Shown here: positions 20,563 to 32,000 of the stretch, piece after piece
How positions within the stretch are numbered: position 1 is the first letter of the stretch
Layout: each line of letters starts with the position of its first letter
Origin: Candidatus Saccharimonadota bacterium
Lineage (GTDB): Bacteria > Patescibacteriota > Gracilibacteria > BD1-5 > UBA6164
NCBI GenBank assembly: GCA_965229705.1
Contig: OZ245922.1
Span: 540,001 to 572,000 of the forward strand
Direction of reading: 5' to 3'
DNA length: 32,000 nt
Position numbers and translations under genes: made by a program
Notes under the pieces: model-generated
Seen by the model: only the letters and a program-made list of their open reading frames with translations
Databases searched by the model: none
Told to the model about the DNA's origin: nothing

Positions 20563-20689
20563 GAGGTGTATCTCTCTTGAAAGGTTTTTTATTCCTCAGA
20601 GTTTCTTCAAGACAAGGGAAAAGACTCATAAAAGTTTGAATATACATATAAAATCAGTATCTTTATAAAAATACTTGATAATCTATTGT

Positions 20690-21010
20690 ATGAGTAAAAC
20701 TCATAATGCATCTTGAACAGAGCAACCCTTTCTACGAGGATTACTCACTTCTGAAAGTTTATCGATTACCAAAAAAACGACTCTCAGTATGCTTGCCTGA
20801 TGAGTCGCACTTTCGAATGTATGATCTGTAGATGCTGCTACATCAAAGCCAATATGTTATGATGTGAAGGTCAATCCTATCAGTGAAAATAATCTCTATG
20901 GTCATTATAGTGGGAATAAGTGATGAAGTGCTAAAGCAAAGTGTCCTTCGGGAAAAAAGCAAGAACTAATATCTCTTGTCAAGTGAATGTCTGACATGCT
21001 AGTGGTGTAG
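20690..21010 (+). CDS. Small secreted/membrane-anchored protein (106 aa); zero-frame product of a possibly frameshifted gene
   Basis: Every codon checked. MSKTHNASGTEQPFLRGLLTSESLSITKKTTLSMLAGGVALSNVGSVDAATSKPICYDV...KCPSGKKQELISLVKGMSDMLVV. TAG at 21008-21010. Confidence 0.55.
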
Positions 21011-21315
21011 TGAACGGGCATTTTAGCGTAACTCCAAATCTTCAAGGAACTTCTGGAAAATGAAGCTGCCATTCGAGTCATAACGACCATGGGAATAATA
21101 ACCATTTTAGTCATGGAAGTACTGGGAATGGAGACAGTCATTCTAGTAATGCCAAAGAAGATAGTGGACCTGATAAGTGAGATAAACATAGTAGTGTTGG
21201 TTCTGAACATACAAGTAGCGGCTTCCCTACACCTAGTCCTCACCAAAATCATAGTAGTAGTAAAAACGAAACTCATTGAAATAGTGAGACTGGACATTCT
21301 TCAAGCAGTGTATAA
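20935..21315 (+). CDS. His/Ser/Gly/Asn-rich open frame (126 codons) with no ATG; the -1 frame relative to 20690..21010
   Basis: Open from 20935 (preceded by TAA 20932-20934) to TAA 21313-21315. ...GHASGVVNGHFSVTPNLQGTSGKGSCHSSHNDHGNNNHFSHGSTGNGDSHSSN...HTSSGFPTPSPHQNHSSSKNETHGNSETGHSSSSV. The only in-frame starts are GTG (20941, 20983, 21010). Confidence 0.5.
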
Positions 21316-21421: not shown

Positions 21422-21925
21422 ATGAAAGGCCTTCTTATATGAGCTTCAGCTCTTGCTCTTACATGATGTTTACAAGATAGATCATGAGATGAACTCGCAA
21501 TTCAACAGTCTCTCCAGCCACCTGTTTGTGAAGGTAACTATAGCCAACTTACATGAGACTTTAGCGTTGCTGAATGAGTACTTGCCTGTCTTGGAGATGG
21601 AAAACTTCCTGAAAAAGTTGCTCAGTGTTGATATGGAAATTATTGGCCAATCATTGCAAATACGAGACGATCCTTAGACGGAGATGCTGATAAAAATATT
21701 ATACAAGCGTTTCAAGATAACAAGAATCCTACTTACAGATCTGGATATACATGAGGTTCTACCTATGGTGTTTTTCAAGAACTTGCGTCTCATACTCTTG
21801 ACGGAACTTTGGGGAGTATTCCAGAAGGTGAGTACTTATATTACTCAGATAACTTCTCCACGTTTGTGAACTGTATCGTTGAAAATCAAAGCGACCAGCC
21901 ACTTCAAACAAATATATGGAAATAA
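21422..21925 (+). CDS. Lipoprotein, hypothetical (167 aa)
   Basis: Every codon checked. MKGLLIGASALALTGC lipobox; an alternative in-frame ATG is at 21392. Nine TGA codons. TAA at 21923-21925. Preferred over the shorter standard-code ORFs 21453..21677 and 21684..21869, which lie in another frame. Confidence 0.7.
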
Positions 21926-21934
21926 ACCTGTAGA

Positions 21935-21967
21935 AAAGAAAGACGCTTCAATGAAGCGTCTTTCTTT
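21935..21967. terminator. Strong bidirectional hairpin terminator
   Basis: AAAGAAAGACGCTTCA / TGAAGCGTCTTTCTTT, a near-perfect 13-16 bp palindrome with A-rich sequence upstream (AGAAAAG, 21932-21938) and a T-rich stretch downstream (TTTCTTTT, 21961-21968). Confidence 0.7.
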
Positions 21968-22041
21968 TAGGAAACTCTGAGAAAGTCCTTTTTTTCTCTC
22001 CTTTTTCAAAGGAGAGATGGCTCGATAGAGATAGAGAGGAT
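21962..22041 (-). repeat. Intergenic repeat, copy A (hairpin core TCTCTCCTTT..AAAGGAGAGA)
   Basis: The reverse complement ATCCTCTCTATCTCTATCGAGCCATCTCTCCTTTGAAAAAGGAGAGAAAAAAAGGACTTTCTCAGAGTTTCCTAAAAGAA aligns at roughly 85% with 29984-30063. Confidence 0.75.
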
Positions 22042-22148
22042 TGGAGATTTTTTTCTCTGGAGTATAGAACCCTCCCCTAGCCCCCTTATCAAGGGAGGGG
22101 AACACAGAACTAGGATAGATGAGGGAGTTTTTGTTTCTCAGGTCTCTC

Positions 22149-22700
22149 TTAAAAATAGCTATAAGGCTCGCTATAATGCTTAAAAAGTTTTTTTGAGCCT
22201 CCTAACATCTGTTGGTGCTTCTCGAGTCAGAGCTTGTTTATCCATTTTTGGATTGCTTCACCATCAGGTCACTCTATCTCCAAAAACTCTGGGATATTCT
22301 CATAACTATCTAGATCAAACTCCATATCTTCCAGACTATAGGATATTCGATACTTTTTCTTTTCTCTTATTTTTGAGAGCCCATATTTTTCGAGTACTTT
22401 GGCAAAGCTCTCTACATTGGTTATAGGTGTTTCATGTTCATCTTTTGCTATGAGTTGCTCCTCTTTCCCTATTGTTTTTCGCTTATTTTTAATAGTGTAT
22501 ATATGTTCTTCTCCTTTTTTTCTGAGACGAAACATGCGACCATTTGCCTGCATTTTGTCTTTTTGTTCTCCTTTTTCAGGAAAATCATAATAAATATCAT
22601 GAATATATCACTCAAAAGTTTTTTTGGCTCAGAGTGAAAGAAGTCTTGCCACTAGCTCTTCCCTATTGATTTCGAGAATCTTTATTTCTTTTTCGAGCAT
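22149..22700 (-). CDS. CYTH-domain protein (CyaB-like class IV adenylate cyclase / triphosphatase fold), 183 aa
   Basis: MLEKEIKILEINREEL (ExExK signature). ...FRLRKKGEEHIYTIKNK...EHETPI...KKYRISYSLEDMEFDLDSYENIPEFLEIEG.... ORF-track ORF 22269..22553 is in frame. TAA at 22149-22151. Confidence 0.75.
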
Positions 22701-22734
22701 AAATATAGGAGGATATATCTTAAATAACAAAAAC

Positions 22735-24894
22735 CTAGAGAGACTCAACCCTCTTCAATCATATTCTCCCCTTTTCAAGATCTACTTGCAAAATCTCAAA
22801 GTCTACCACATCATCAACTTTTACCACATCCTCTACCTTCATTACTCGTTGCTGTGAAAGTTTTGAGATATGTATCATCCCAGAATTTCCTCCTCGAAAT
22901 TCTACAATTGCTCCAACTCCATCAATGATTTTCACCACTCTTCCTGTTCACATATATCATACCTCTGGATTCCAAAGAATCTCCTTTATATCACTGATAG
23001 CCGCTTTCCCTGAAGACTGATCTTTTGCAGTAATCGTTGTCATGCCATCATCATTGATCGATATCACGACACTATGATCTGCTTGGATTTTTTGAATAGT
23101 TTCTCCACCTCGACCGATAACTTCTCTGATTTTTGCTTCGGGTACCTGCATGCTCATAATCAGAGGAGCATATGGAGAGAGTTGCCGAGCAACCTCAGGC
23201 TGCACCTTGAGCATTTCTTCGAGGATATAACCCGTTGCCTGTTTTGCTTGAGAAAAAGCTTCTTCAAACACCTTCATTTTGAGTCACTTGATTTTTACAT
23301 CGAGTTGCATTGCCGTAATCCCTTCAGAGCTTCGTGCAAGTTTAAAATCCATATCTCACAAAAAATCCTCCTGCGCCTGAATATCTGAAAGAATCGTATA
23401 TTCTCCTTGTTCTTCATTATAGATCATACCCATTGCCACCGCTGAAACTGGTCTCTTAATTGGTACTCCGGCATTCATCAAGCTCATAGTCGAGCCACAT
23501 ACCGATGCCATAGAGCTGGAACCATTACAAGTTGTCACTTCACTCACAGTTCGTATCATATATGGAAACTCTTCTTGTGAAGGAAGTACTGCTTCGAGAG
23601 CTCGTTCTGCGAGTCTTCCGTGTCCTATTTCTCGACGCCCAGCTCCTCGCATCATACGAACCTCTCCAACAGAGTATGGAGGAAAGTTATAATGATGAAT
23701 ATATCTCTTATGTGTTTCTTCGAACATTCCGTCAACAATCATCAAATCTTCTGGACCTCATAAAGTACAGATATTGAGTACCTGCGTCATTCCTCTTTGA
23801 AAAAGTGCAGATCAATGTGTTCGTGGTAAGAGTCCTACCTCTCCCCTGATATTTCTCACATCTTGAGGTTTTCTTCCATCGAGCCTTGTTCCTGACTCAA
23901 GAACATTTTTCCGCATGACTTCTTTGACCCTTTTATATACCATTGCTCCTACTGCCGATGTATCATCATCCTCTGCATAATCTCACTGAGCTATCAAGTA
24001 CTCCGTCACCTCAATATCAAAAGCATCAAGCACTTTTTGAAATCATTTCTTACTTTGGTTATATAAACTTGCAAGTTTCTCCTCTGTGAGATAGGATGAA
24101 ACCTTTTCTTGCAGACTCACATCTGGCAGATTATAACTTGGCTGTATTGCATTGATTGCTCCATAAGTTGTTGCAAAATCTTTGAGAAAATCAAGCTGCG
24201 CCTCACAAAGCTCTTGGATCAGTCCATGAGCATAAGTAAGAGCATGGAGCATCTCATCTTCACTCACCTCTTGCGCTCCAGCTTCGACCATTGTGATAGC
24301 ATCTGATGTTCCTGCAACTACAAGATGGAGACGAGCATCTGATTCTTCAGTGAAGTTTGGATCAAAGATATATTGCCCCTCTGAGTTTACAGCAATCTTG
24401 ACTCATGCAACTGGTCACTCAAAAGGTGCCCCAGCTATCAAGAGTGCGAGAGAAGCGCTGGTAATTCCCCATGAACCTTGTTCAGAGACTCCATCACTTG
24501 AGAGAACCGTCGCGATAATCTGTGTATCATTAATCATTCCTTTAGGAAACATCGGTCGAATCGGTCTATCTATCATGCGTGATGTCAGAGTCGCTCCATC
24601 ACTTGGTCTGGTTTCTCGCTTCATAAACCTATTCCCTCCTATCTTTCCTGTAGCATAGTATTTTTCTTGATAATCCACAACGAGTGGGAAAAAATCTGCT
24701 TTTTCGTTGAGTCATACTTCTTTGATACCTGCTGTTGTGAGAAGTATATTTCAGAGCTCGTCACTCATAGTGACTGATCCATTGGCGAGGAGTCAAAGTT
24801 TGCCTGTCTCAAAAGACAACTTCTTCCCAGCAATAGTATAAGTCTTTTTTAGTGGCTGCATGCTTGCAGCATTTGTATCTGTTAGTCCTTGCAT
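22735..24894 (-). CDS. pnp: Polyribonucleotide nucleotidyltransferase (PNPase), 719 aa
   Basis: Four ORF-track fragments lie in one frame. ...[25 protein letters not shown].... ...[10 protein letters not shown]...[15 protein letters not shown].... ...EDFL[TGA]DMDFK.... KH domain ...[16 protein letters not shown].... S1 domain ...[16 protein letters not shown].... TAG at 22735-22737. An alternative in-frame start at 24861 gives a more canonical N-terminus. Confidence 0.95.
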
Positions 24895-25120
24895 ATACAA
24901 AAATAAATATATAAAAATGATTTTTTGAAGATATTTATGAAAACATATGCAAAACCCTTATGACATGTATCTCATAAGAATCTCAAAATAAGCCTTCGAA
25001 ATATCTCAAAAAAATCGTGAAAAGTATATCAAAAAAAGAAAAAAGGAGAAATTTTTGTACAAGCTTGAAAACAATAATGAGTTTTGATAATAAAATATGA
25101 AGTTTCTCTATATTTTGTTC

Positions 25121-25696
25121 TTACTCGTCATCATCAAAATCATACACCACATCGCTTGATCATTCATGCACAGGTTTTGGATCTGTTTCTCAGGCAGCGT
25201 TAATAAGTCAGAGTGGTTCAGGAGGTGAGAGACTCGTATCTGGAGTATAACTTCATACAACCTTCGCTATAGCCTCTCCTTGTATATTCTCAATACTTCC
25301 AGCTAACTGATATCTAATCTCTCACGAAAGCCCCGTCACTCATAATCTTGGATACTCATTTGTAAGTGGATCCATATAATCTGGTCACAAAAGCTGGAGT
25401 CAGACAAAATCTATATCTCATGCCCGATAATGAGACTTAGCTGGCTGTCATCAAAAATACGCTCATGGAACTTCCTGACCCGACACGACATACTGCGAGA
25501 TATTTTCTCATGATGCTATTTTTAAAGTAATCACTTTATTAATAGATTGCAGGTTAGAAATGCGAGTTGAGTTACGAGCCTCGACAGTGTAGTTTGAAAA
25601 ACTGATAAATCCTAATACAGATAATACTGATATAATCAGGATCATCACTAACATTTCTACAAGCGTAAATCCATGACTATAATAAAAATGCTTCAT
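25121..25696 (-). CDS. Type IV pilin-like protein (prepilin N-terminal cleavage/methylation motif), 191 aa
   Basis: MKHFYYSHG|FTLVEMLVMILIISVLSVLGFISF. Every codon from 25510 to the TAA at 25121-25123 was translated. Confidence 0.8.
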
Positions 25697-25786
25697 AGAA
25701 ATAGAAATATATAAAAATATAATATTATTTTAATAATAATAAAAATTTTTATTTTTTGAAGAAAAATGTGAAAAAAAATATTTTTT

Positions 25787-26353
25787 CTAAAAATCATACA
25801 CCACATCACTCGATCATTCATACACAGGTTTTGCTTCAGTTTCTCATGCAGCATTGATAAGTCAGAGTGGTTCAGCAGAAGAAAGACTTGTATCTGGATC
25901 ATAGTTTCACAGTATCGTAGTATAGGCTGATCCATCTGCAGCTTCAAGACTCATGGCAAACTCATACTGCTCTTTTCATGCTGTTCATAAAACCCCTAGT
26001 CTTGGATATTCTTCTCGTTTTGGATCTTCAAACTGCTCTATATCAGCAACACCTATAGCTCGAAAATCTATTCCTCCTGCCTTGTAATCCGTTCCCGCAG
26101 GCTGTCATCAAAAATACGCTCATGGAACCTCTTGACCAGGAACAACATACTGCAAAAGATCCTCTCCAGCAGACATTTTAACACTCACGAGTTTTTGAAG
26201 AGATGTGAGAATCGTTACTCTCGAAGTATTACGAGCATCAAGCGCATATCATCTATACGCAATAAAACCAATCAGTCACAATATCGCTATGAGTGTCAAA
26301 ATGATGACAACTTCAGAAACATGAAAGCCGCTTAGTCTGTTTTTGTTTCTCAT
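25787..26353 (-). CDS. Type IV pilin-like protein, paralogue of 25121..25696 (188 aa)
   Basis: MRNKNRLSG|FHVSEVVIILTLIAILGLIGFIAY. Shares ...QYVV.GQEVPGAYFGGQPA...EYPRLGV...DTSLS..EPLGLINAAGET..KPV.EGSSDVVYDF with the downstream copy. TAG at 25787-25789. Confidence 0.8.
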
Positions 26354-26363
26354 AAAATATATA

Positions 26364-27455
26364 TTATTTTTTTAAAAGTTTTTTCATGGCTCATAAGCCT
26401 ATTTTTGTCTTTTTTCTTTTTTCTGGTTGAAACTTGATAATTCATTTCTCTGACAAAAATATAGCAATAGGTCGAGTAGCATCTATGTGAGCGAGCGTAA
26501 TATTAACCATTACCATTATCGGAACTGATAAAAGCATCCCTATAGGTCACCATACCATTCACCAAAAAATAAGAGAGAATAAAATCACTAAAGGAGAAAG
26601 ATTGAGCTTATTTCACATAAGTCGAGGTTCTATAAAACTTCATATAAAGAGCTGTGATGCCGTCATCAAAAATAAAAATACGCTTGTCAGTGCAAGCGAC
26701 TCAAACTGAACAAGAGAAAATAATACCGGAAAAGTAACGGCAATAATCGAACCAATATTTGGGATATAGTTGAGTAAGAAGATCAAAAAAGCCCAAAATA
26801 TAAAAAAATCTAATCCAAAAAAGAACATAATCAGAGCACTCAAAAGCGCGATACATATACTCGTAATCGTCTTAATCATAAAGTAGGATTTCATATCTTC
26901 TTGTATTTGCTTTACTGCATCAAAAAATCGAGATTTTTCTCAGCCAGTAATGAGACCAATCTTTTTTTCAAACACCTTACTTTCAAGCAAGATAAATATT
27001 GTAAACATCAGTATGAGACCGGCATTTTTTACAATACTTGTGGCAATACTTGCAAGACCCGTAAGAACCGCTGAAAAATCTATGCTTTGAAATCCATTTT
27101 CGAGCATCTTTCAGGCATTGAGATCATATTTTTCTGAATATCGAGTAAACATACCCAAAAGTTTTTGTTCATATTCTGGTGCTTGAGAGATAATTCATCC
27201 AATATTTGTATTGATAATCTGCGCAACAGCATAAAAAATACTTCCTAAAAGTATCAGTGTAAAAATAAATGAAAGAGGTTTTGGGATACCTCGTTTTTGA
27301 AATGCGCTGGAAACAGAAATAATGATAAATGACAAAAACACCGCTAAAACAAAAGGGATGAGGAGTGATGATCCGATATAAAGGACATATATCAAAAATC
27401 ACAGTGTCAGAATCGTAATATTTATGAGTATCAGTGTATGCGCTTTATGAAACAT
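26364..27455 (-). CDS. AI-2E family transporter (PerM/UPF0118), 363 aa
   Basis: ...FLIFLLNYIPNIGSIIAVTFPVLFSL...[43 protein letters not shown].... ORF-track fragments 27395 and 26894 are in frame. TAA at 26364-26366. Confidence 0.88.
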
Positions 27456-27478
27456 AATATACCTACTTTATAAAATAC

Positions 27479-29299
27479 TTACTCTACCTGCCAGTAGTTT
27501 CCTCGAGAATACAACTGTGAACCATCTGGAGAGGTAATAGCTGGAAAAATAACATCGCAAGATCTCATACTTGCATAAAAATCAACACTCTGATCGCATG
27601 GACAGCTATCACATACTGCTCCTCAGAGAATACTCGCACTTTGGTTATTATGCAAACAATTTTGAGAACGAAATGTTATTGGCTGACAGACTCAATCTTG
27701 AGAACAACTTGTCTCGTCACTTGACGAGCATATATAGCCCTCAGGACATGAACAGTTTGGTCAGCACGAACTTTCATATACAGGACAGCCACTATTGTTC
27801 AGCGTTCAAAATACTCAAGGACAACGATCATCACAGTCATTTATCCCATCACTATCAGAGTCTCATCCACAAACATCTCAATCGTATACTTCTATTACGG
27901 CAGTTGATGATGAAGTTTTTCCATCCCTATCTCTTACCTGTAAGAGAACTCTGTATATGCCCTCATTTCTATAGAGATACGATACTTTTGATCATATAGC
28001 TTGTGCTCCCTGTCAAAAGTTCCATTCATACTCATATGGAGCTTGTCATCATTTCACTCTAGGAGTAAACTCAACAAAAAGAGACTCATATCATGCTATA
28101 GGGCTCGCATTTACCGAGACGCTCAATCAGCTTTCTCCCACATCTCGAGTAACTACCGTACTATACACCTCACTACTATTCCCACATATATCAACAACTC
28201 TACTATACACCCTCCATGTTCCTTCTCATGGAAATATAAAGTTATCGAGATATGGTGTATAACGAAAGATTTGCTGTCCTGTATCTGTATTGTGAAAGCG
28301 CCATATATATCATACTTTTTTATCAATACCCAACTCACATGTTGTTTCTCCATCAGCAACAAAGTCATAGATATTACCTGCATCATCCAGAGAAGAGAGA
28401 CGACAGTTTATGCCATCTGATATTTTACATTGCTTATCTTGTATACGAATCTGCAATGCTAAAGCTTCATCAGTTACTTCTTTACAGTTATTTGATTTGA
28501 GAGCGATATATGCCATACGAAGAAAATCTTCTTTACTGACGAATGACTGCGCGTTGATATTTCCTCAGCTATCAGGTCCTAGGAGTTTGAGTATTTTTTT
28601 ATTTCCAGAGCTATCATACTCGTAGATTTCGTATTCGAGAGCTTTTCGCAGGTAGCCGTAAAATGTATAAGGATTTCACTGCATATCTGTTGGGGAAACA
28701 TCATTTCAGAGTTTTTCTGTGATACGACCAGCAGAGATATCGCGTATTACTTCTTGGTTTTGTTCTATTGTAAAAATTCATGAGTTTCGTAAAAGGACCG
28801 CAACTGCCTCTTCTAGCTTAATAGTATTTTCAGGGCAAAAGGGTCTTTCTAGAGGATTTGATTGACCATTTTGACAACTCTCTCCTATACCATACCCTCG
28901 CACAGCATTATTTGTATCTGCCTCTGCAATACAGTAAAAATAAGGATTTTCTGGTGTTACATCAAAGTATATTTCTCTCTGAGTATACTTCTCTATATAA
29001 GAAAAATCTGTATGAGGCAACATGCATCTCTCGCACACAACCTCCATAGATATTCCTACAAACTCGTCTCTCTGTAGGGGTTTGTCTGCTCAAAATAGAT
29101 TATCTTCTCCAGGAATAATCATTCCTCTATCATAGAGTGTTTGCAACTCATCTCTATACTGATAGTCTTCGTCTATATCAGAAAAAATATCCTCTACAAG
29201 ACTCCTCTCAGCAAATACTGAGGGAAGAGAGAAAAAGAGTATGATACTACAAATACTTATCTTGAGGAACATCTGAGAAATAAAAAAAGATATTTTCAT
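27479..29299 (-). CDS. Large secreted surface protein: SLH-like N-terminal module, PKD-like domain(s), thrombospondin-type-3-like Asp repeat, Cys-rich C-terminus (about 606 aa)
   Basis: Codon-by-codon translation from 28777 to TAA at 27479-27481. Signal MKISFFISQMFLKISICSIILFFSLPSVFA; the ORF is open upstream to ATG 29338. SLH-like: FSDIDEDYQYRDELQTLYDRGMIIPGEDNLFGADKPLQRDEF. PKD: ...LSVSVNASPIAGYESLFVEFTPRVKGGQAPYEYEWNFGQGAQ...YRNEGIYRVLLQVRDRDGKTSSSTAVIEV. Also GGDSDSDGINDCDDRCP. About 20 Cys in the last 130 aa. Confidence 0.8.
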
Positions 29300-29394
29300 A
29301 GAGTGTTGATAAAATATATTGGAAGTTTTGAGAAACAAAAAATCTCAATCCAATCTGACTCTACCGAGCCATCAGTAACTTTTTCAGAGCTTCC

Positions 29395-29850
29395 TTACAC
29401 CATAGCATACATCACAACTCCTGCTGCAACAGAAACATTCAAAGACTCCTTATATCATAACATCGGTATCATAAAGGTCTTATCAGAAATATCCAATACT
29501 TCTGCCGAGATTCACTGGACTTCGTTTCCGAAAATAAGGGCAATATCTTTTTGTGTTTCATACGCCAGTTGTTTGTAATCGAGAGCGTCTTTTGTGAGTT
29601 CGATACTGTATATCTGTATATTTTGATTTTTGAGTGTATGTACAAGCTCCTTAGCGTTTTTATAATACTCCCAGTTAATCCTCTTTTCTGCACCAAGAGC
29701 TGTTTTGGAGATTTCTCTGCGAGGAGGACAAGGAGTATAACCACAAAGAAATATTTTTTCAAACCCTGCTCCATCAGCATTTCGAAAAATAGCTCCAACA
29801 TTTTGTAGTGAACGAATGTTTTCGAGTATGATATACTTTTTTACTTTCAT
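29395..29850 (-). CDS. SpoU/TrmH-family RNA 2'-O-methyltransferase (151 aa)
   Basis: ...ILENIRSLQNVGAIFRNADGAGF...IALIFGNEVQ[TGA]ISAEVLDISDKTFMIPMLGYKESLNVSVAAGVVMY.... TAA at 29395-29397. Confidence 0.85.
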
Positions 29851-29922
29851 GCTCTATGAAATACTTTTATTTCCTCTTGAGTCAAGTAAAAATCCTCTTT
29901 GTTATTGTATTTTCCTCAAAAA

Positions 29923-29950
29923 GAAGTATTTTCAGGTTTGAAAATACTTC
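29923..29950 (+). promoter_or_regulatory. Conserved 10-bp-stem inverted repeat in the leader of pilin::FISUMP copy 1
   Basis: GAAGTATTTT (29923-29932) pairs with AAAATACTTC (29941-29950). The same arms recur upstream of copy 2 with a different loop. Confidence 0.45.
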
Positions 29951-29983
29951 CTCAAGCACGCTCTGAAAGGCAAAATTTTTCTC

Positions 29984-30063
29984 ATCCTCTCTGGCTCTCG
30001 CGAGCCATCTCTCCTTTGGAAAAGGAGAGAAAAAAAGGAGTTTTTCAGAGATTCCTTAAAGAA
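29984..30063 (+). repeat. Intergenic repeat, copy B, inserted in the leader of pilin::FISUMP copy 1
   Basis: ATCCTCTCTGGCTCTCGCGAGCCATCTCTCCTTTGGAAAAGGAGAGAAAAAAAGGAGTTTTTCAGAGATTCCTTAAAGAA. Lies in inverted orientation relative to copy A (21962-22041). Absent from the homologous leader of copy 2. Confidence 0.75.
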
Positions 30064-30095
30064 TATAATTTTTATCTTTATAAACACTTTGTAGT

Positions 30096-30794
30096 ATGTA
30101 TAGAACTTTTTTGAAAAAAACTCCAAAGACTCAGGGTTTTACTCTGGTAGAACTAATCACGGTAGTAACAATCCTCGCTGTACTCTCTGCTATAGGATTT
30201 GTCTCTTTTTCTGGGTATCTCGCAGGAGTCAGAGATACCAATAGACTGTCACAGATCACATCTATATATGACTGACTGGAACTTTATTCTACAAAGAATG
30301 ATCTGCCTATGCCTGATGACGCTGTAGAGATACAGGACGGAACCAGTCTCTTATGATATCAAGGAAATATTGGAGCAAATATTCTCGATATCCTCGACTT
30401 TAGTCGAGGAGGTGTTGATCCCAAAGATGATTCATATTTTGTGTATTATCTCTCTGCAGATAAGAATGATTTTCAACTTATGGCGTTTCTCGAGGAAGAA
30501 CAAAACGTCCCAACCGTATTTTTTCCTCAGGCATATGCTAAAGACTATAGTAATCTTTATCCAGTCGTATTTGGAGAAAAGCTTGGAATACTCCTTGATG
30601 AGACAACGAAGACTCCTGTCCATGAGATAGAGGCAGTCAAGACGGCTGGAGCGTTAGATTTAGATGGAAGTACAGAGAGTTATACTGCCTACTTTAAAAA
30701 TGATGATACCGCAACGGATACAGGAGAAAATCTATGAGAGACGATAGAGGAGGAGAGAGAGGAAGGGGCGAGTACTTCTGACAGTATCGAGTAG
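30096..30794 (+). CDS. Type IV pilin-like N-terminal module (232 aa), the upstream half of a split pilin::FISUMP gene
   Basis: MYRTFLKKTPKTQG|FTLVELITVVTILAVLSAIGFVSF.... ORF-track ORF 30441..30737 is in frame. Ends ...GENLGETIEEEREEGASTSDSIE at TAG 30792-30794. Confidence 0.8.
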
Positions 30795-31551
30795 TTCAAC
30801 TACTGCTTCTACTGCGCCTACTGATTGGAGAGCTCAAGATCCTAATTGTGACAGAGCAGATGTGACTATCTGAACACAGACGTGGGCATGATGTAACTCA
30901 ACTCTGGGAACATGATTTGAATGGTGACAAACAGATGCGGATGTAGGGACAAATAATTATAGTGGATCGGTAGGTTCTTCTCAAGGTTGCTACAACTATA
31001 ACGGAAGTACTTCTTGAGTAGCTTGTACCAAGTGAGATATAACGATGGCGAGTACCTCTAAAGCCAATGCTTGGTTTACCGGAACGAATAATAATGGAGA
31101 TACTGCCGTAGATAATATATGGGGAAAGTTCTATACTTGGGATTCTCTCGATACGGATAATGATAACGATATAGATGCAGCTGATACCAATCTTGTATGT
31201 TGAGTGGGATACCATGTACCAAGTGAACTCGAATGGGAAACACTCGAAGAATACTTGAATGGATCAGCTTGTAGAACTTCATATAATAGTTACCAGTGTG
31301 ACTGACAGTGATGGAAGTACCACTCAACGACTAATAGTGATAGCAGTATTGCCGAACTCCTACAGATTCCTTTGAGTGGTCAGCGTACTAATAACACATT
31401 CTATCATCGTGGGAACTATGGGTATCTATGGTCTAGTACGGTAAATGGATCTAAGGCTTATAGGAGAGATTTTTTTTATAATAGTACCAACGTCAATAGT
31501 AACGATGTTACACAATCGAGTTGATATTCAGTCAGGTGTATCAAGGATTAG
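30748..31551 (+). CDS. FISUMP (Fibrobacter succinogenes major paralogous, TIGR02145-like) domain ORF lacking its own start; the +1 frame relative to 30096..30794
   Basis: All 268 codons were translated and the frame is open 30748-31551. ...SSSSTTASTAPTDWRAQDPNCDRADVTIGTQTWAGCN...WGKFYTWD...CGVGYHVPSELEWETL...IPLSGQRTNN.FYHRGNYGYLWSST...GYSVRCIKD. The first in-frame ATG (31045) is inside the domain. TAG at 31549-31551. Confidence 0.8.
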
Positions 31552-31560
31552 GGATTTTTG

Positions 31561-31592
31561 AACGCCGGGGTGTAGCCTGGGGTTGTTTTTTT
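31561..31592 (+). terminator. Probable terminator after the FISUMP ORF
   Basis: AACGCCGGG / CCTGGGGTT imperfect stem (one mismatch, one G-U pair), followed by GTTTTTTT. Confidence 0.45.
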
Positions 31593-31672
31593 AAGAAGAA
31601 CTATATTCACACACAAGATTCTTTCTTGAGTCAACGAAAAAAACTCTTGTTCTATTGTATTTTCGTGAAAAA

Positions 31673-31701
31673 GAAGTATTTTTCTCTTGGAAAATACTTT
31701 C
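31673..31701 (+). promoter_or_regulatory. Conserved inverted repeat in the leader of pilin::FISUMP copy 2
   Basis: GAAGTATTTT (31673-31682) pairs with AAAATACTT(T)C (31691-31701). Counterpart of 29923-29950. Confidence 0.45.
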
Positions 31702-31715
31702 TTAATTATTTCTTT

Positions 31716-32000
31716 ATGAAGCCATCTTTCTTAAAAAAAACTCAGGGTTTTACTCTGGTAGAACTGATCACGGTAGTGACTATCCTTGCTGTACTTGCAG
31801 CTATAGGATTTGTCTCTTTTTCTGGTTATCTCGCAGGAGTACGAGATACCAATAGACTTTCTCAACTTACATCTATCTATGACGGTTTAGAGCTCTACGC
31901 GACAAAGTATGATCTGCCTATGCCTGATGATGCTGTAGAGATACAAGACGGATCGAGTCTCTTAGGATACCAAGGAAATATAGGAGCAAATATCCTCGAT
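31716..32000 (+). CDS. Type IV pilin-like protein, tandem paralogue of 30096.. (5' part only; runs off the window)
   Basis: MKPSFLKKTQG|FTLVELITVVTILAVLAAIGFVSFSGYLAGVRDTNRLSQLTSIYDGLELYATKYDLPMPDDAVEIQDGSSLLGYQGNIGANILD. About 90% identical to copy 1. Confidence 0.85.
   Translation, partial: MKPSFLKKTQGFTLVELITVVTILAVLAAIGFVSFSGYLAGVRDTNRLSQLTSIYDGLELYATKYDLPMPDDAVEIQDGSSLLGYQGNIGANILD

Follow-up and report, generated by a model that had tools for sequence, protein, structure and literature searches.

A shared frame break in the linker of two tandem pilin::FISUMP genes in a Gracilibacteria-type genome

In a modular type IV pilin gene of a small bacterial genome, the reading frame is broken in the linker between the pilin module and the FISUMP head, which is of a sugar-binding type, and the next gene of the tandem array (copy 2) carries the same break as the first (copy 1). 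The split is probably due to a recent insertion of 1 nt, common to both copies by duplication or gene conversion, and not to recoding. The analysis covers a stretch of 32 kb containing copy 1 and the 5' part of copy 2, referred to here as the window.

In the mechanism considered most probable, the locus would open a tandem array of modular type IV pilin genes in a Gracilibacteria-type genome with genetic code 25. The genes of the array would share one plan, beginning with the prepilin leader and a ~215-aa pilin module and continuing with an acidic EEEREE stretch, a Ser/Thr linker and the FISUMP head. One extra nucleotide in the Ser/Thr linker of copy 1 (~30779-30784) would put the head in the +1 frame, and the same lesion would most likely have spread to or from copy 2 by tandem duplication or gene conversion. 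Ordinary translation would then give a headless pilin of 232 aa ending at the TAG at 30792, leaving the head ORF as an untranslated, still intact remnant.

Gene layout, genetic code and pilin architecture

The features of the locus are collected in Table 1. ORF1 begins with an ATG at 30096 and ends with a TAG at 30792-30794. In-frame TGA occurs in it three times (30273, 30354 and 30735), so that TGA must be a sense codon if the ORF is to reach 232 aa. When copy 2 and the orthologue from the sister strain L034 are aligned with it, TGA is paired with GGT, GGA and GGA; in syntenic genes, the non-identical partners of TGA are Gly in 6 of 7 cases. TGA is also the commonest Gly codon of the window (229 of 587), and some long ORFs there (1048, 740 and 656 aa) depend on its being read as sense. 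No tRNA-Gly(UCA) was found within the window. Judged by these codons, the genome reads TGA as Gly, which corresponds to genetic code 25, and it is because of this reading that the arrangement of ORF1 and ORF2 holds. The preliminary description had given the coordinates of the 232-aa ORF and its prepilin signal correctly, presupposing a sense TGA that it did not state.

Table 1. Features at the pilin::FISUMP locus of the window
Feature	Position	Strand	Content	Remarks
Upstream element common to copies 1 and 2	29888-29955	+	Direct repeat D4, 68 nt	76% identical
92-nt intergenic repeat with internal hairpin	29972-30063	+	Inverted repeat I1 with 21962-22053	85% complementary
ORF1	30096-30794	+	232 aa (code 25), with prepilin leader and pilin module followed by acidic linker	Public call P0135
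Class III (prepilin) signal peptide MYRTFLKKTPKTQG	30096-30137	+		PF07963 and TIGR02532 match residues 11-34
Purine tract	30747-30764	+	Codons of (I)EEEREE	Module-boundary motif
ORF2	30748-31551	+	+1 frame; Ser/Thr linker and FISUMP head; 267 codons	Public call P0148
GGG_G, candidate +1 slip site	30765-30768	+		Present in window, absent in L034 orthologue
Putative surplus nucleotide	30779-30784	+	TCT GACA GTA	Single Ser codon in intact paralogues
Head C-terminus, hypervariable	31399-31548	+	50 codons	Pattern among paralogues like a DGR variable region
Terminator-like hairpin and T run	31565-31580	+		3' of ORF2 stop
Tandem copy 2, 5' part	31716-32000	+		Public call P0147

The N-terminus of ORF1 reads MYRTFLKKTPKTQG followed by FTLVELI, with cleavage predicted before F15. 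This class III signal (KTQG before the cut, FTLVELI after it) has Gly at -1 and Glu at +5, and it is matched by PF07963 (N_methyl; 27 bits, cut-off 21.2) and TIGR02532 (26.4 bits, cut-off 16.3). ORF2 is open from 30748 to a TAG at 31549-31551 and overlaps ORF1 by 47 nt. It matches PF09603 (Fib_succ_major; E 6.6e-15, 56.3 bits, cut-off 33.9) and TIGR02145 (58.2 bits, cut-off 41.65), the FISUMP domain, which we take to be the same as IPR011871. No ATG precedes the FISUMP domain in this frame and a signal peptide is absent too, as had been described before along with the start of the frame and its overlap; the first GTG lies at 30856 and is used as the start by the public call. By our estimate, an open frame of 267 codons would arise by chance in DNA of 35% GC with a probability of ~5e-7, and hence ORF2 is a real coding sequence. 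The idea that it is a separately translated functional gene was rejected, as it has no ATG and no signal peptide and its GTG lies inside the domain.

The second copy of repeat D4 (31638-31705) ends 10 nt 5' of the copy-2 ATG, and the corresponding element at copy 1 is possibly a promoter or 5' leader. The 92-nt repeat sits between that element and the copy-1 ATG; it was considered as a mark of decay, and this was rejected since it also precedes the intact L034 orthologue. A scan of 21800-32000 with Rfam returned nothing relevant.

The architecture of the intended product, that of a modular type IV pilin, is already known. Modular type IV pilins such as PilB (vWA) and PilC (lectin) of Streptococcus sanguinis have been described, and IPR011871 was reported among the 15 commonest architectures, including an example from Gracilibacteria (Raynaud et al. 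2021, PMC8179133). Public annotations also name Gracilibacteria proteins with both PF07963 and PF09603. PilB and PilC share with the present family a class III signal and pilin module, a short flexible linker and a C-terminal ligand-binding module. The present family differs from them in the frameshift that splits the gene in the linker, in a long pilin module (~215 aa) and in its tandem arrays, in which near-identical pilin modules carry variable heads (FISUMP, fibrinogen-like, LamG). The C-terminal module is missing from the polypeptide of copy 1 and is part of the same polypeptide in the paralogues P0140, P0145 and P0146 and in the L034 orthologue. Genes for pilus assembly (prepilin peptidase, ATPase, platform protein) were not found in the 32-kb window.

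The predicted model of a homologue, P0008, consists of a helix, a beta domain, a disordered linker and a confident head, and fold comparison of a predicted model matched phage FISUMP proteins at E 7.5e-7. A fold search of the PDB with the whole-protein model gave nothing significant, with C-type lectins appearing only at E ~4, and a search of the PDB by sequence gave a spurious antibody as its sole match. The C-type-lectin fold of the head is thus taken from the literature and not from the fold search.

Proposed slip site and position of the frame break

It had been proposed that the two frames are joined by a programmed +1 shift at GGG_G, similar to that of prfB. Most of the protein made would then be headless pilin, while a fixed share would be full-length and carry the head, with the junction peptide …EEGRVLLTVSSSS… (…EEG-RVLLTVSSSS…). 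The site itself is as had been described, with GAA GGG GCG in frame 0 at 30762-30770, the +1 codon CGA at 30769 and the purine tract in front. By our reading, GGG_G is the only site in the 47-nt overlap that allows perfect +1 re-pairing; GAGG lies 2 nt 5' of it, and the break is common to two tandem copies with both head ORFs intact. The likeness to prfB lies in the re-pairing codon, which closely follows a purine-rich stretch containing GAGG, and in the functionally important downstream part, which is in the +1 frame.

What defines the prfB-type shift, however, is that a stop or slowly decoded codon comes immediately after the codon that shifts (PMC5009743). Here GGG is followed by GCG, which is not rare (58 of 442 Ala codons, 13%), and the frame-0 stop lies 24 nt downstream of the shift codon. 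RNA folding 3' of GGG_G was no better than that of shuffled sequences (z = +0.49), which gives no sign of a stimulatory structure. Moreover, the purine tract is accounted for by its Glu and Arg codons, as the EEEREE peptide is kept in all paralogues and in the L034 orthologue, whose codons over the motif (GAA GAG GAA AGA GAG GAG GAA) differ from those of the window at synonymous sites. A Shine-Dalgarno motif within 20 nt of the start was found in 0 of the 24 genes of the window, which does not include the 16S rRNA 3' end. A role of the tract as a Shine-Dalgarno-like signal is thus not supported.

Comparison with relatives argues against the programmed shift as well. The L034 orthologue is in frame with GAG GAA ACA in place of GGG_G, and the residue that follows the Gly is Ser or Thr in the paralogues. 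Five paralogues of the same genome and 28 of 31 distant homologues are likewise in frame, so that the break, unlike that of prfB, is not conserved in orthologue or paralogues. In addition, homology in frame 0 extends 12 nt beyond GGG_G, and the break maps downstream of the site. A programmed shift at GGG_G is accordingly extremely improbable.

The position of the break was obtained by placing the inserted base from protein alignments and from the DNA of L034. The window reads EEG-ASTS in frame 0 and VSSSSTTAS in the +1 frame, and hence the best repair by a single base lies at 30779-30781 and not in the G run; frameshift-aware scoring gave 209/219 for a deletion there vs 193/200 in the G run. 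At the DNA level, the window differs from L034 by a single surplus of 10 nt in the linker (~30778-30787), which is the only frame-changing difference. The preliminary description had also allowed for a mutation or error of 1 nt, or a pseudogene. That class of explanation was right, but its location in the G4 run is not supported, since homology puts the surplus base 12-18 nt further downstream. No simple-sequence repeat is present at the indel; only G4 and (GA)4 occur, and the indel is outside both.

Orthologue, paralogues and the question of assembly

L034 is syntenic with the window, with neighbouring proteins 93-99% identical and PNPase 99.3% identical. Its orthologue of copy 1 is one uninterrupted ORF across the junction (...GETIEEEREEETSVSGSSTTASTGPTDWRGQDPNCDKADVTIGTQTWAGCN), and the five L034 loci that were seen all have intact genes. 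Among 31 homologous loci from other Gracilibacteria genomes, 28 consist of a single ORF, and a break in the linker occurs in none of the 31. One homologue, from L031, is naturally headless at 225 aa, from which it follows that the pilin module alone is a viable product. The exact junction pattern had no match in the metagenome collection or in the compared loci. Single-protein scans of the genome and metagenome contigs for DNA of the paralogues found no relative, and when proteins were searched with the copy-2 N-terminus, the matches were all short and of unrelated length. Proteins of 53-57 aa co-listed in cluster 4 were discarded as unrelated.

By exact look-ups, the window is part of a contig of 1,006,762 bp. 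Within this same genome, the paralogues P0140, P0145 and P0146 are intact with 482, 485 and 482 aa, in agreement with the pilin of ~485 aa with a FISUMP head that had been expected as the intended product. P0001 and P0002 are also continuous over the junction, and all five read EEEREEG(S/T)S(T/S)SSVSSSSTTAS. A comparison of paralogues had been suggested as a way to recognise recoding by a shared break, and it instead found these five uninterrupted. The eight paralogues are in three states: three are intact, two (P0001 and P0002) are called only from Met72, their 5' truncation being taken solely from gene calls, and three are split. Over residues 72-225 of the pilin module, all paralogues agree almost completely (~100% identity), and identity among the paralogues is mosaic, in blocks. 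The pilin::FISUMP family is visibly homogenised.

The second tandem copy starting at 31716, noted before, is confirmed and is 87% identical to copy 1 over 265 nt; its first 95 aa are those of P0147, including a unique VLAAIGF. It is broken identically, as its ORF1 (P0147) ends in ...EEEREEGASTSDSIE at the stop codon and the matching head ORF is P0149. At the protein level, copies 1 and 2 are identical in the block around the break. Such an identical block is where assembly and polishing are weakest. The head ORFs of both split copies are fully open, which fits a very recent event but also selection for translation of the head. The tandem array runs on beyond 32000.

The main rival reading is a repeat-associated error of assembly or polishing. 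The true sequence would then lack the extra base, and both copies would be intact pilin::FISUMP genes of ~484 aa. The break falls within the block shared by the two copies, in a near-identical segment where read mapping and polishing are unreliable, given the near identity of the pilin modules. Frame faults are also concentrated in the multicopy pilin family, the remaining genes of the window being intact in 24 of 24 cases (~7,800 codons), which indicates that the sequence quality is good overall, and the head ORFs of both copies are perfectly intact. On the other hand, the surplus base lies outside a homopolymer (TCTGACAGTA), the identical error would be needed twice, and an artefact gives a poor account of the split of a third paralogue, P0010 and P0121, with its divergent pilin module. 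In that gene, a +1 split lies ~25 residues into the head, according to our reconstruction of the overlapping frames, with neither a purine tract nor GGG_G. The P0010 pilin module is only 57% identical to that of copy 1, which makes a repeat artefact less likely for this split; frameshift decay therefore appears to be real in the pilin::FISUMP family. An artefact at copies 1 and 2 is hence possible but doubtful. A basecalling error caused by methylation of CTGCAG (TCTGCAGTA read as TCTGACAGTA) was considered as its source and rejected, because the reading frames that contain or border six CTGCAG sites of the window are intact. CTGCAG also adjoins the break of P0010 and P0121.

A true mutation that spread by conversion or duplication would resemble the ordinary frameshift pseudogenes of multigene surface-protein families. 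These likewise show a single lineage-specific indel with an otherwise intact downstream ORF; orthologue and paralogues are unbroken, and further members of the family have breaks in unrelated places. The present case differs in that two adjacent copies carry an identical lesion.

Variable heads and the pilin family as a whole

The last 50 codons of the head contain 20 variable positions among six distinct paralogue sequences. A homologous pilin::FISUMP locus, L012 (CAWUJK010000012.1), has a canonical diversity-generating retroelement (DGR). There, the variable region takes up the final 200 nt of the homologous gene; the template repeat downstream of it has 23 mismatches, 18 of them at adenines of the template, and is accompanied by an Avd-like gene and an RT. 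Of the Asn positions in this template repeat, 14 of 15 coincide with variable positions of the paralogues (p = 5e-7), and 61 of 66 residue types can be encoded by NNY codons, although ordinary diversifying selection acting on the same binding surface would look similar. Variable proteins of DGRs with C-type-lectin-fold, DUF1566 or Fib_succ_major domains have been reported (PMC8143477, PMC11661182).

The present heads have the domain of the L012 protein and end, like it, in ...SVRCIKD, and the paralogues vary at positions matching the template Asn codons. The differences are that RT, Avd and template repeat are all absent from the 32-kb window, and that copies 1 and 2 do not differ in their variable regions. 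A repeat of 31380-31551 does not occur elsewhere in the window, and no window ORF matched the L012 RT or Avd. The link to DGRs, which had been offered as speculation, has thus gained indirect support from L012 and from the paralogue variation; the search for an RT and a template repeat matching the 3' end of the head found neither within the window.

Variable heads on near-identical modules also bring to mind a contingency or silent-cassette system, in which broken and 5'-truncated copies would form a reservoir to be activated or to donate heads by gene conversion. This mode resembles pilE/pilS of Neisseria, and DGR diversification of the heads could run alongside it. The mixed states of the eight paralogues, the mosaic block-wise identity with almost identical pilin modules and the DGR-like hypervariation at the head C-terminus are consistent with such a system. 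It is nevertheless unlikely, as the indel site has no simple-sequence repeat (G4 and (GA)4 are too short and elsewhere), recombination signals were not identified, the truncation of P0001 and P0002 comes from gene calls, and the sister strain is intact at every locus seen. It is very unlikely that the shared break is kept by selection, with ordinary translation giving a headless pilin that forms fibres, a rare slip at GGG_G or conversion from intact paralogues adding a small amount of adhesin with its head, and a retroelement outside the window diversifying the heads. If true, the selected break would belong to a system for varying adhesins in an ultrasmall, host-dependent bacterium.

The recoding candidate fails, and the locus should be kept off lists of programmed frameshifts. 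The code-25 genome has at least eight modular pilin paralogues, which are nearly identical in their pilin modules and differ strongly in their FISUMP heads; several are broken. L012 shows that such heads can be targets of DGRs. The mixture of intact and broken genes points to either rapid turnover or trouble in the assembly of repeats, and either would be relevant to annotators. The pilin family is a plausible toolkit for host recognition in organisms that are thought to live attached to host cells.

Reading frames and genetic code

The window, with a GC content of 35%, is intelligible only with TGA as a sense codon, since under table 11 the region gives short ORFs only, while reading through TGA yields ORFs of 1048, 740, 656 and 622 aa. 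The codons aligned with TGA are GGT or GGA for the tandem paralogue and GGA for an orthologue. Gly accounts for six of the seven non-identical partners of TGA in syntenic genes, and more Gly residues in the window are encoded by TGA (229/587) than by any other codon. Hits carry the label Candidatus Gracilibacteria, and the genome uses genetic code 25 (TGA = Gly). In the public annotation of the contig, genes were called under code 4, which shows Trp at every TGA position.

Once TGA was read as sense, all coordinates in the preliminary description of the split gene (copy 1) were found to be correct, as was the architecture it named, a pilin carrying a FISUMP head (see table). The prepilin frame (ORF1) and the +1 frame (ORF2) overlap by 47 nt. 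The second tandem copy (copy 2) was confirmed, with 87% identity to copy 1 over 265 nt.

Elsewhere in the window, a partial edge ORF (1-940, - strand) has a resolvase-like N-terminus (AIIYCRKSTD...) and matches PF00239 weakly, at 20 bits, below the cut-off. At 20669-21315 (+), ORFs of 113 and 126 aa overlap in different frames and may represent either two small genes or another split gene; the 126-aa one is of low complexity, with many His, Ser and Gly residues.

Features of the split gene and of related loci (window coordinates unless a locus is named)
Feature	Position	Strand	Details
ORF1	30096-30794	+	232 aa; leader KTQG/FTLVELI; PF07963 and TIGR02532 above cut-offs; public call P0135
ORF2, +1 frame	30748-31551 (open)	+	FISUMP domain: PF09603 E 6.6e-15, TIGR02145 58 bits
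ORF2, public call P0148	GTG start 30856	+	exact match to code-4 translation
GGG_G	30765-30768	+	directly after purine tract 30747-30764
Copy 2	start 31716
Repeated intergenic element, 92 nt	29972-30063 and 21962-22053	inverted orientation	85% complementary; internal hairpin TCTCTCCTTTGGAAAAGGAGAGA; also upstream of L034 orthologue
Intact paralogues P0140, P0145, P0146	same contig		482, 485, 482 aa
P0001, P0002	same contig		continuous across junction; called only from Met72
L034 (ENA ERZ25074195)	collinear with ~22.0-30.9 kb		11,241 bp
L003			in-frame stop inside fibrinogen-like head
L021			short gene, 1.2-kb contig
L031			naturally headless pilin, 225 aa
L012 variable region	L012:7334-7535		3' end of pilin::FISUMP gene
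L012 GC hairpin	directly 3' of stop		GCCGACGTTAGTCGGC
L012 Avd-like gene	L012:8016-8366
L012 template repeat	L012:8487-8688		Asn-rich; 18/23 mismatches at template's adenines
L012 RT	L012:8780-9973

Position of the break and the GGG_G site

Exact-sequence look-ups with code-4 translations of window genes found these as public gene calls on a single contig of 1,006,762 bp, which also encodes paralogues of copy 1. In all five continuous paralogues the junction reads ...GENLGETIEEEREEG-(S/T)S(T/S)SS-VSSSSTTASTAPTDW; in the window, frame 0 gives EEG-ASTS-DSIE (stop) and the +1 frame ...RVLLT-VSSSSTTASTAPTDW. Two of the paralogues, P0001 and P0002, are called only from Met72 and may have a damaged 5' end. 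When every base was deleted singly and the repaired translation scored against the paralogues, the best deletion was at 30779-30781 (209/219), against 193/200 for deletion in the G run. Hence, the surplus base was placed within TCT GACA GTA, 12-18 nt 3' of GGG_G and in no homopolymer, and not in the G run as had been suggested.

A sister-strain locus (L034) shares with the window genes for a SpoU methylase, a PKD/SLH protein, an AI-2E transporter, two small pilins and PNPase, the proteins being 93-99% identical. SpoU is adjoined in L034 by the positional orthologue of copy 1, and both its unusual MYRTFLKKTxKTQ start and the upstream 92-nt element, which had no match in an Rfam search, are shared. 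This orthologue is one unbroken ORF of 306 aa through the junction to the contig end (...GETIEEEREEETSVSGSSTTASTGPTDWRGQDPNCDKADVTIGTQTWAGCN...), and at the DNA level only 10 extra nt in the window, at ~30778-30787, change the frame. In other sister-strain paralogues, P0003 to P0006 (loci L001 and L002), the module boundary is marked by the related motifs IEEER or IEDER followed by Ser/Thr runs, and all of these genes are intact. The counterpart of one 210-aa window gene (22149-22781) is called as three small ORFs (72, 69 and 58 aa) at L034:8345-8898, a fragmentation that may come from indel errors in a low-coverage assembly (contig 3x).

The headline of the preliminary description was a programmed +1 shift at GGG_G, modelled on prfB, where a stop codon immediately follows the shift codon and an internal Shine-Dalgarno sequence stimulates the shift; these two features are the hallmarks of prfB (PMC5009743). 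Within the overlap, no site other than GGG_G allows perfect +1 re-pairing, but neither hallmark is convincingly present. Unlike in prfB, GGG is followed by GCG (13% of Ala codons) rather than a stop, and the frame-0 stop of copy 1 sits 24 nt away. A Shine-Dalgarno-like motif was found within 20 nt upstream of the start codon in none of the 24 window genes; these upstream regions are AT-rich. For the 102 nt 3' of the site, the predicted folding was no stronger than that of shuffled sequence (z = +0.49). GAA GGG GCG of the window corresponds to GAG GAA ACA in the orthologue, and the adjoining purine tract, taken earlier for a Shine-Dalgarno-like signal, differs synonymously in the orthologue/window comparison (GAA GAG GAA AGA GAG GAG GAA versus GAG GAG GAG AGA GAG GAA), a pattern that seems to reflect protein-coding constraint on an EEEREE motif and not a nucleotide signal. 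Since neither hallmark of prfB is convincingly present and both the orthologue and the paralogues are in frame, programmed frameshifting at this site is highly improbable.

Origin of the break in the pilin array

The class of alternative originally named, mutation or error, was the right one. The first 95 residues of the public call P0147 equal window 31716-32000, the unique VLAAIGF included; hence, P0147 is copy 2. Its C-terminus is exactly that of copy 1 (...EEEREEGASTSDSIE, stop; ORF1 ends ...EEGASTSDSIE, stop) and its head is a separate, head-only ORF (P0149); copy 2 thus carries the same break. The final ~125 residues of P0149 are identical to P0148, whereas the first halves of the two heads differ, a mosaic pattern pointing to active gene conversion in the array.

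One more paralogue, which lies outside the window in the same genome and whose FISUMP-like head is different, is also split (P0010 and P0121). By reconstruction, the C-terminus of P0010 (…NVWSSTAGTWTSS, stop) and the N-terminus of P0121 (MYDRVLQEHELVLN…) are readable from a single DNA in frames 0 and +1, with the +1 shift ~25 residues into the head and neither purine tract nor GGG_G. As the pilin module is only 57% identical to copy 1, this split is not obviously a repeat problem.

An assembly or polishing artefact at the linker deserves consideration because the lesion lies inside a block identical between copies 1 and 2, where polishing is weakest, and the pilin modules of the family are almost 100% identical. 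It is nevertheless rather unlikely: the surplus base is outside any homopolymer, the 24 other window genes are clean, and P0010/P0121 is independently split despite its divergent pilin module. On these same grounds a real mutation is favoured, and the break is probably a recent genuine insertion in the linker of copies 1 and 2, which would have spread by duplication or conversion. That the head ORFs are still intact agrees with a recent event.

The pilin family and diversity-generating retroelements

Copy 1 belongs to the modular type IV pilins, whose architecture has been described before (PMC8179133) and is present in public annotation. Heads in the family are FISUMP, fibrinogen-like or LamG. 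A profile-guided scan of species-representative genomes gave 31 homologous loci from Gracilibacteria and Peribacteria. In 28 of them the frame stays open beyond the pilin module for another 150 to >300 residues, and none of the three exceptions (L003, L021, L031) has a linker frameshift. In L003 (5845-7700; complete Peribacteria genome CP060226.1) the same frame resumes after the stop within the head. The model of an intact homologue (P0008) comprises an N-terminal helix (11-62), a beta-rich pilin domain, a disordered linker (259-279) and a confidently modelled head (283-517, pLDDT >90), which matches phage FISUMP proteins (E 7.5e-7); against the PDB the model had no significant match. Two small tandem paralogous pilin-like genes in the window (25121-25729 and 25787-26371, - strand; 191 and 188 aa), with segments 71-85% identical and only the first reaching the N_methyl cut-off, may encode fibre subunits.

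No RT, Avd or template repeat of a diversity-generating retroelement (DGR) was found in the 32-kb window. A textbook DGR cassette lies beside a pilin::FISUMP gene (44% identical) at the homologous locus L012, which has another pilin gene from 10428 onwards. The last 50 head residues (window 31399-31548 and paralogues; six distinct heads in the window's genome) fall into two classes, 20 hypervariable positions and 30 invariant ones. Of the 15 Asn positions in the L012 template, 14 correspond to variable head positions (Fisher p = 5e-7), and 61 of 66 residue types at the hypervariable positions are NNY-encodable. FISUMP domains have been reported among DGR targets (PMC8143477, PMC11661182). Taken together with the L012 cassette and the match of variable positions, this makes a DGR elsewhere in the genome plausible but unproven; a connection with the linker frameshift is not evident. 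The gene family is a known one, of which copy 1 is an ordinary disrupted example, and its setting is a moderately interesting variable adhesin array.
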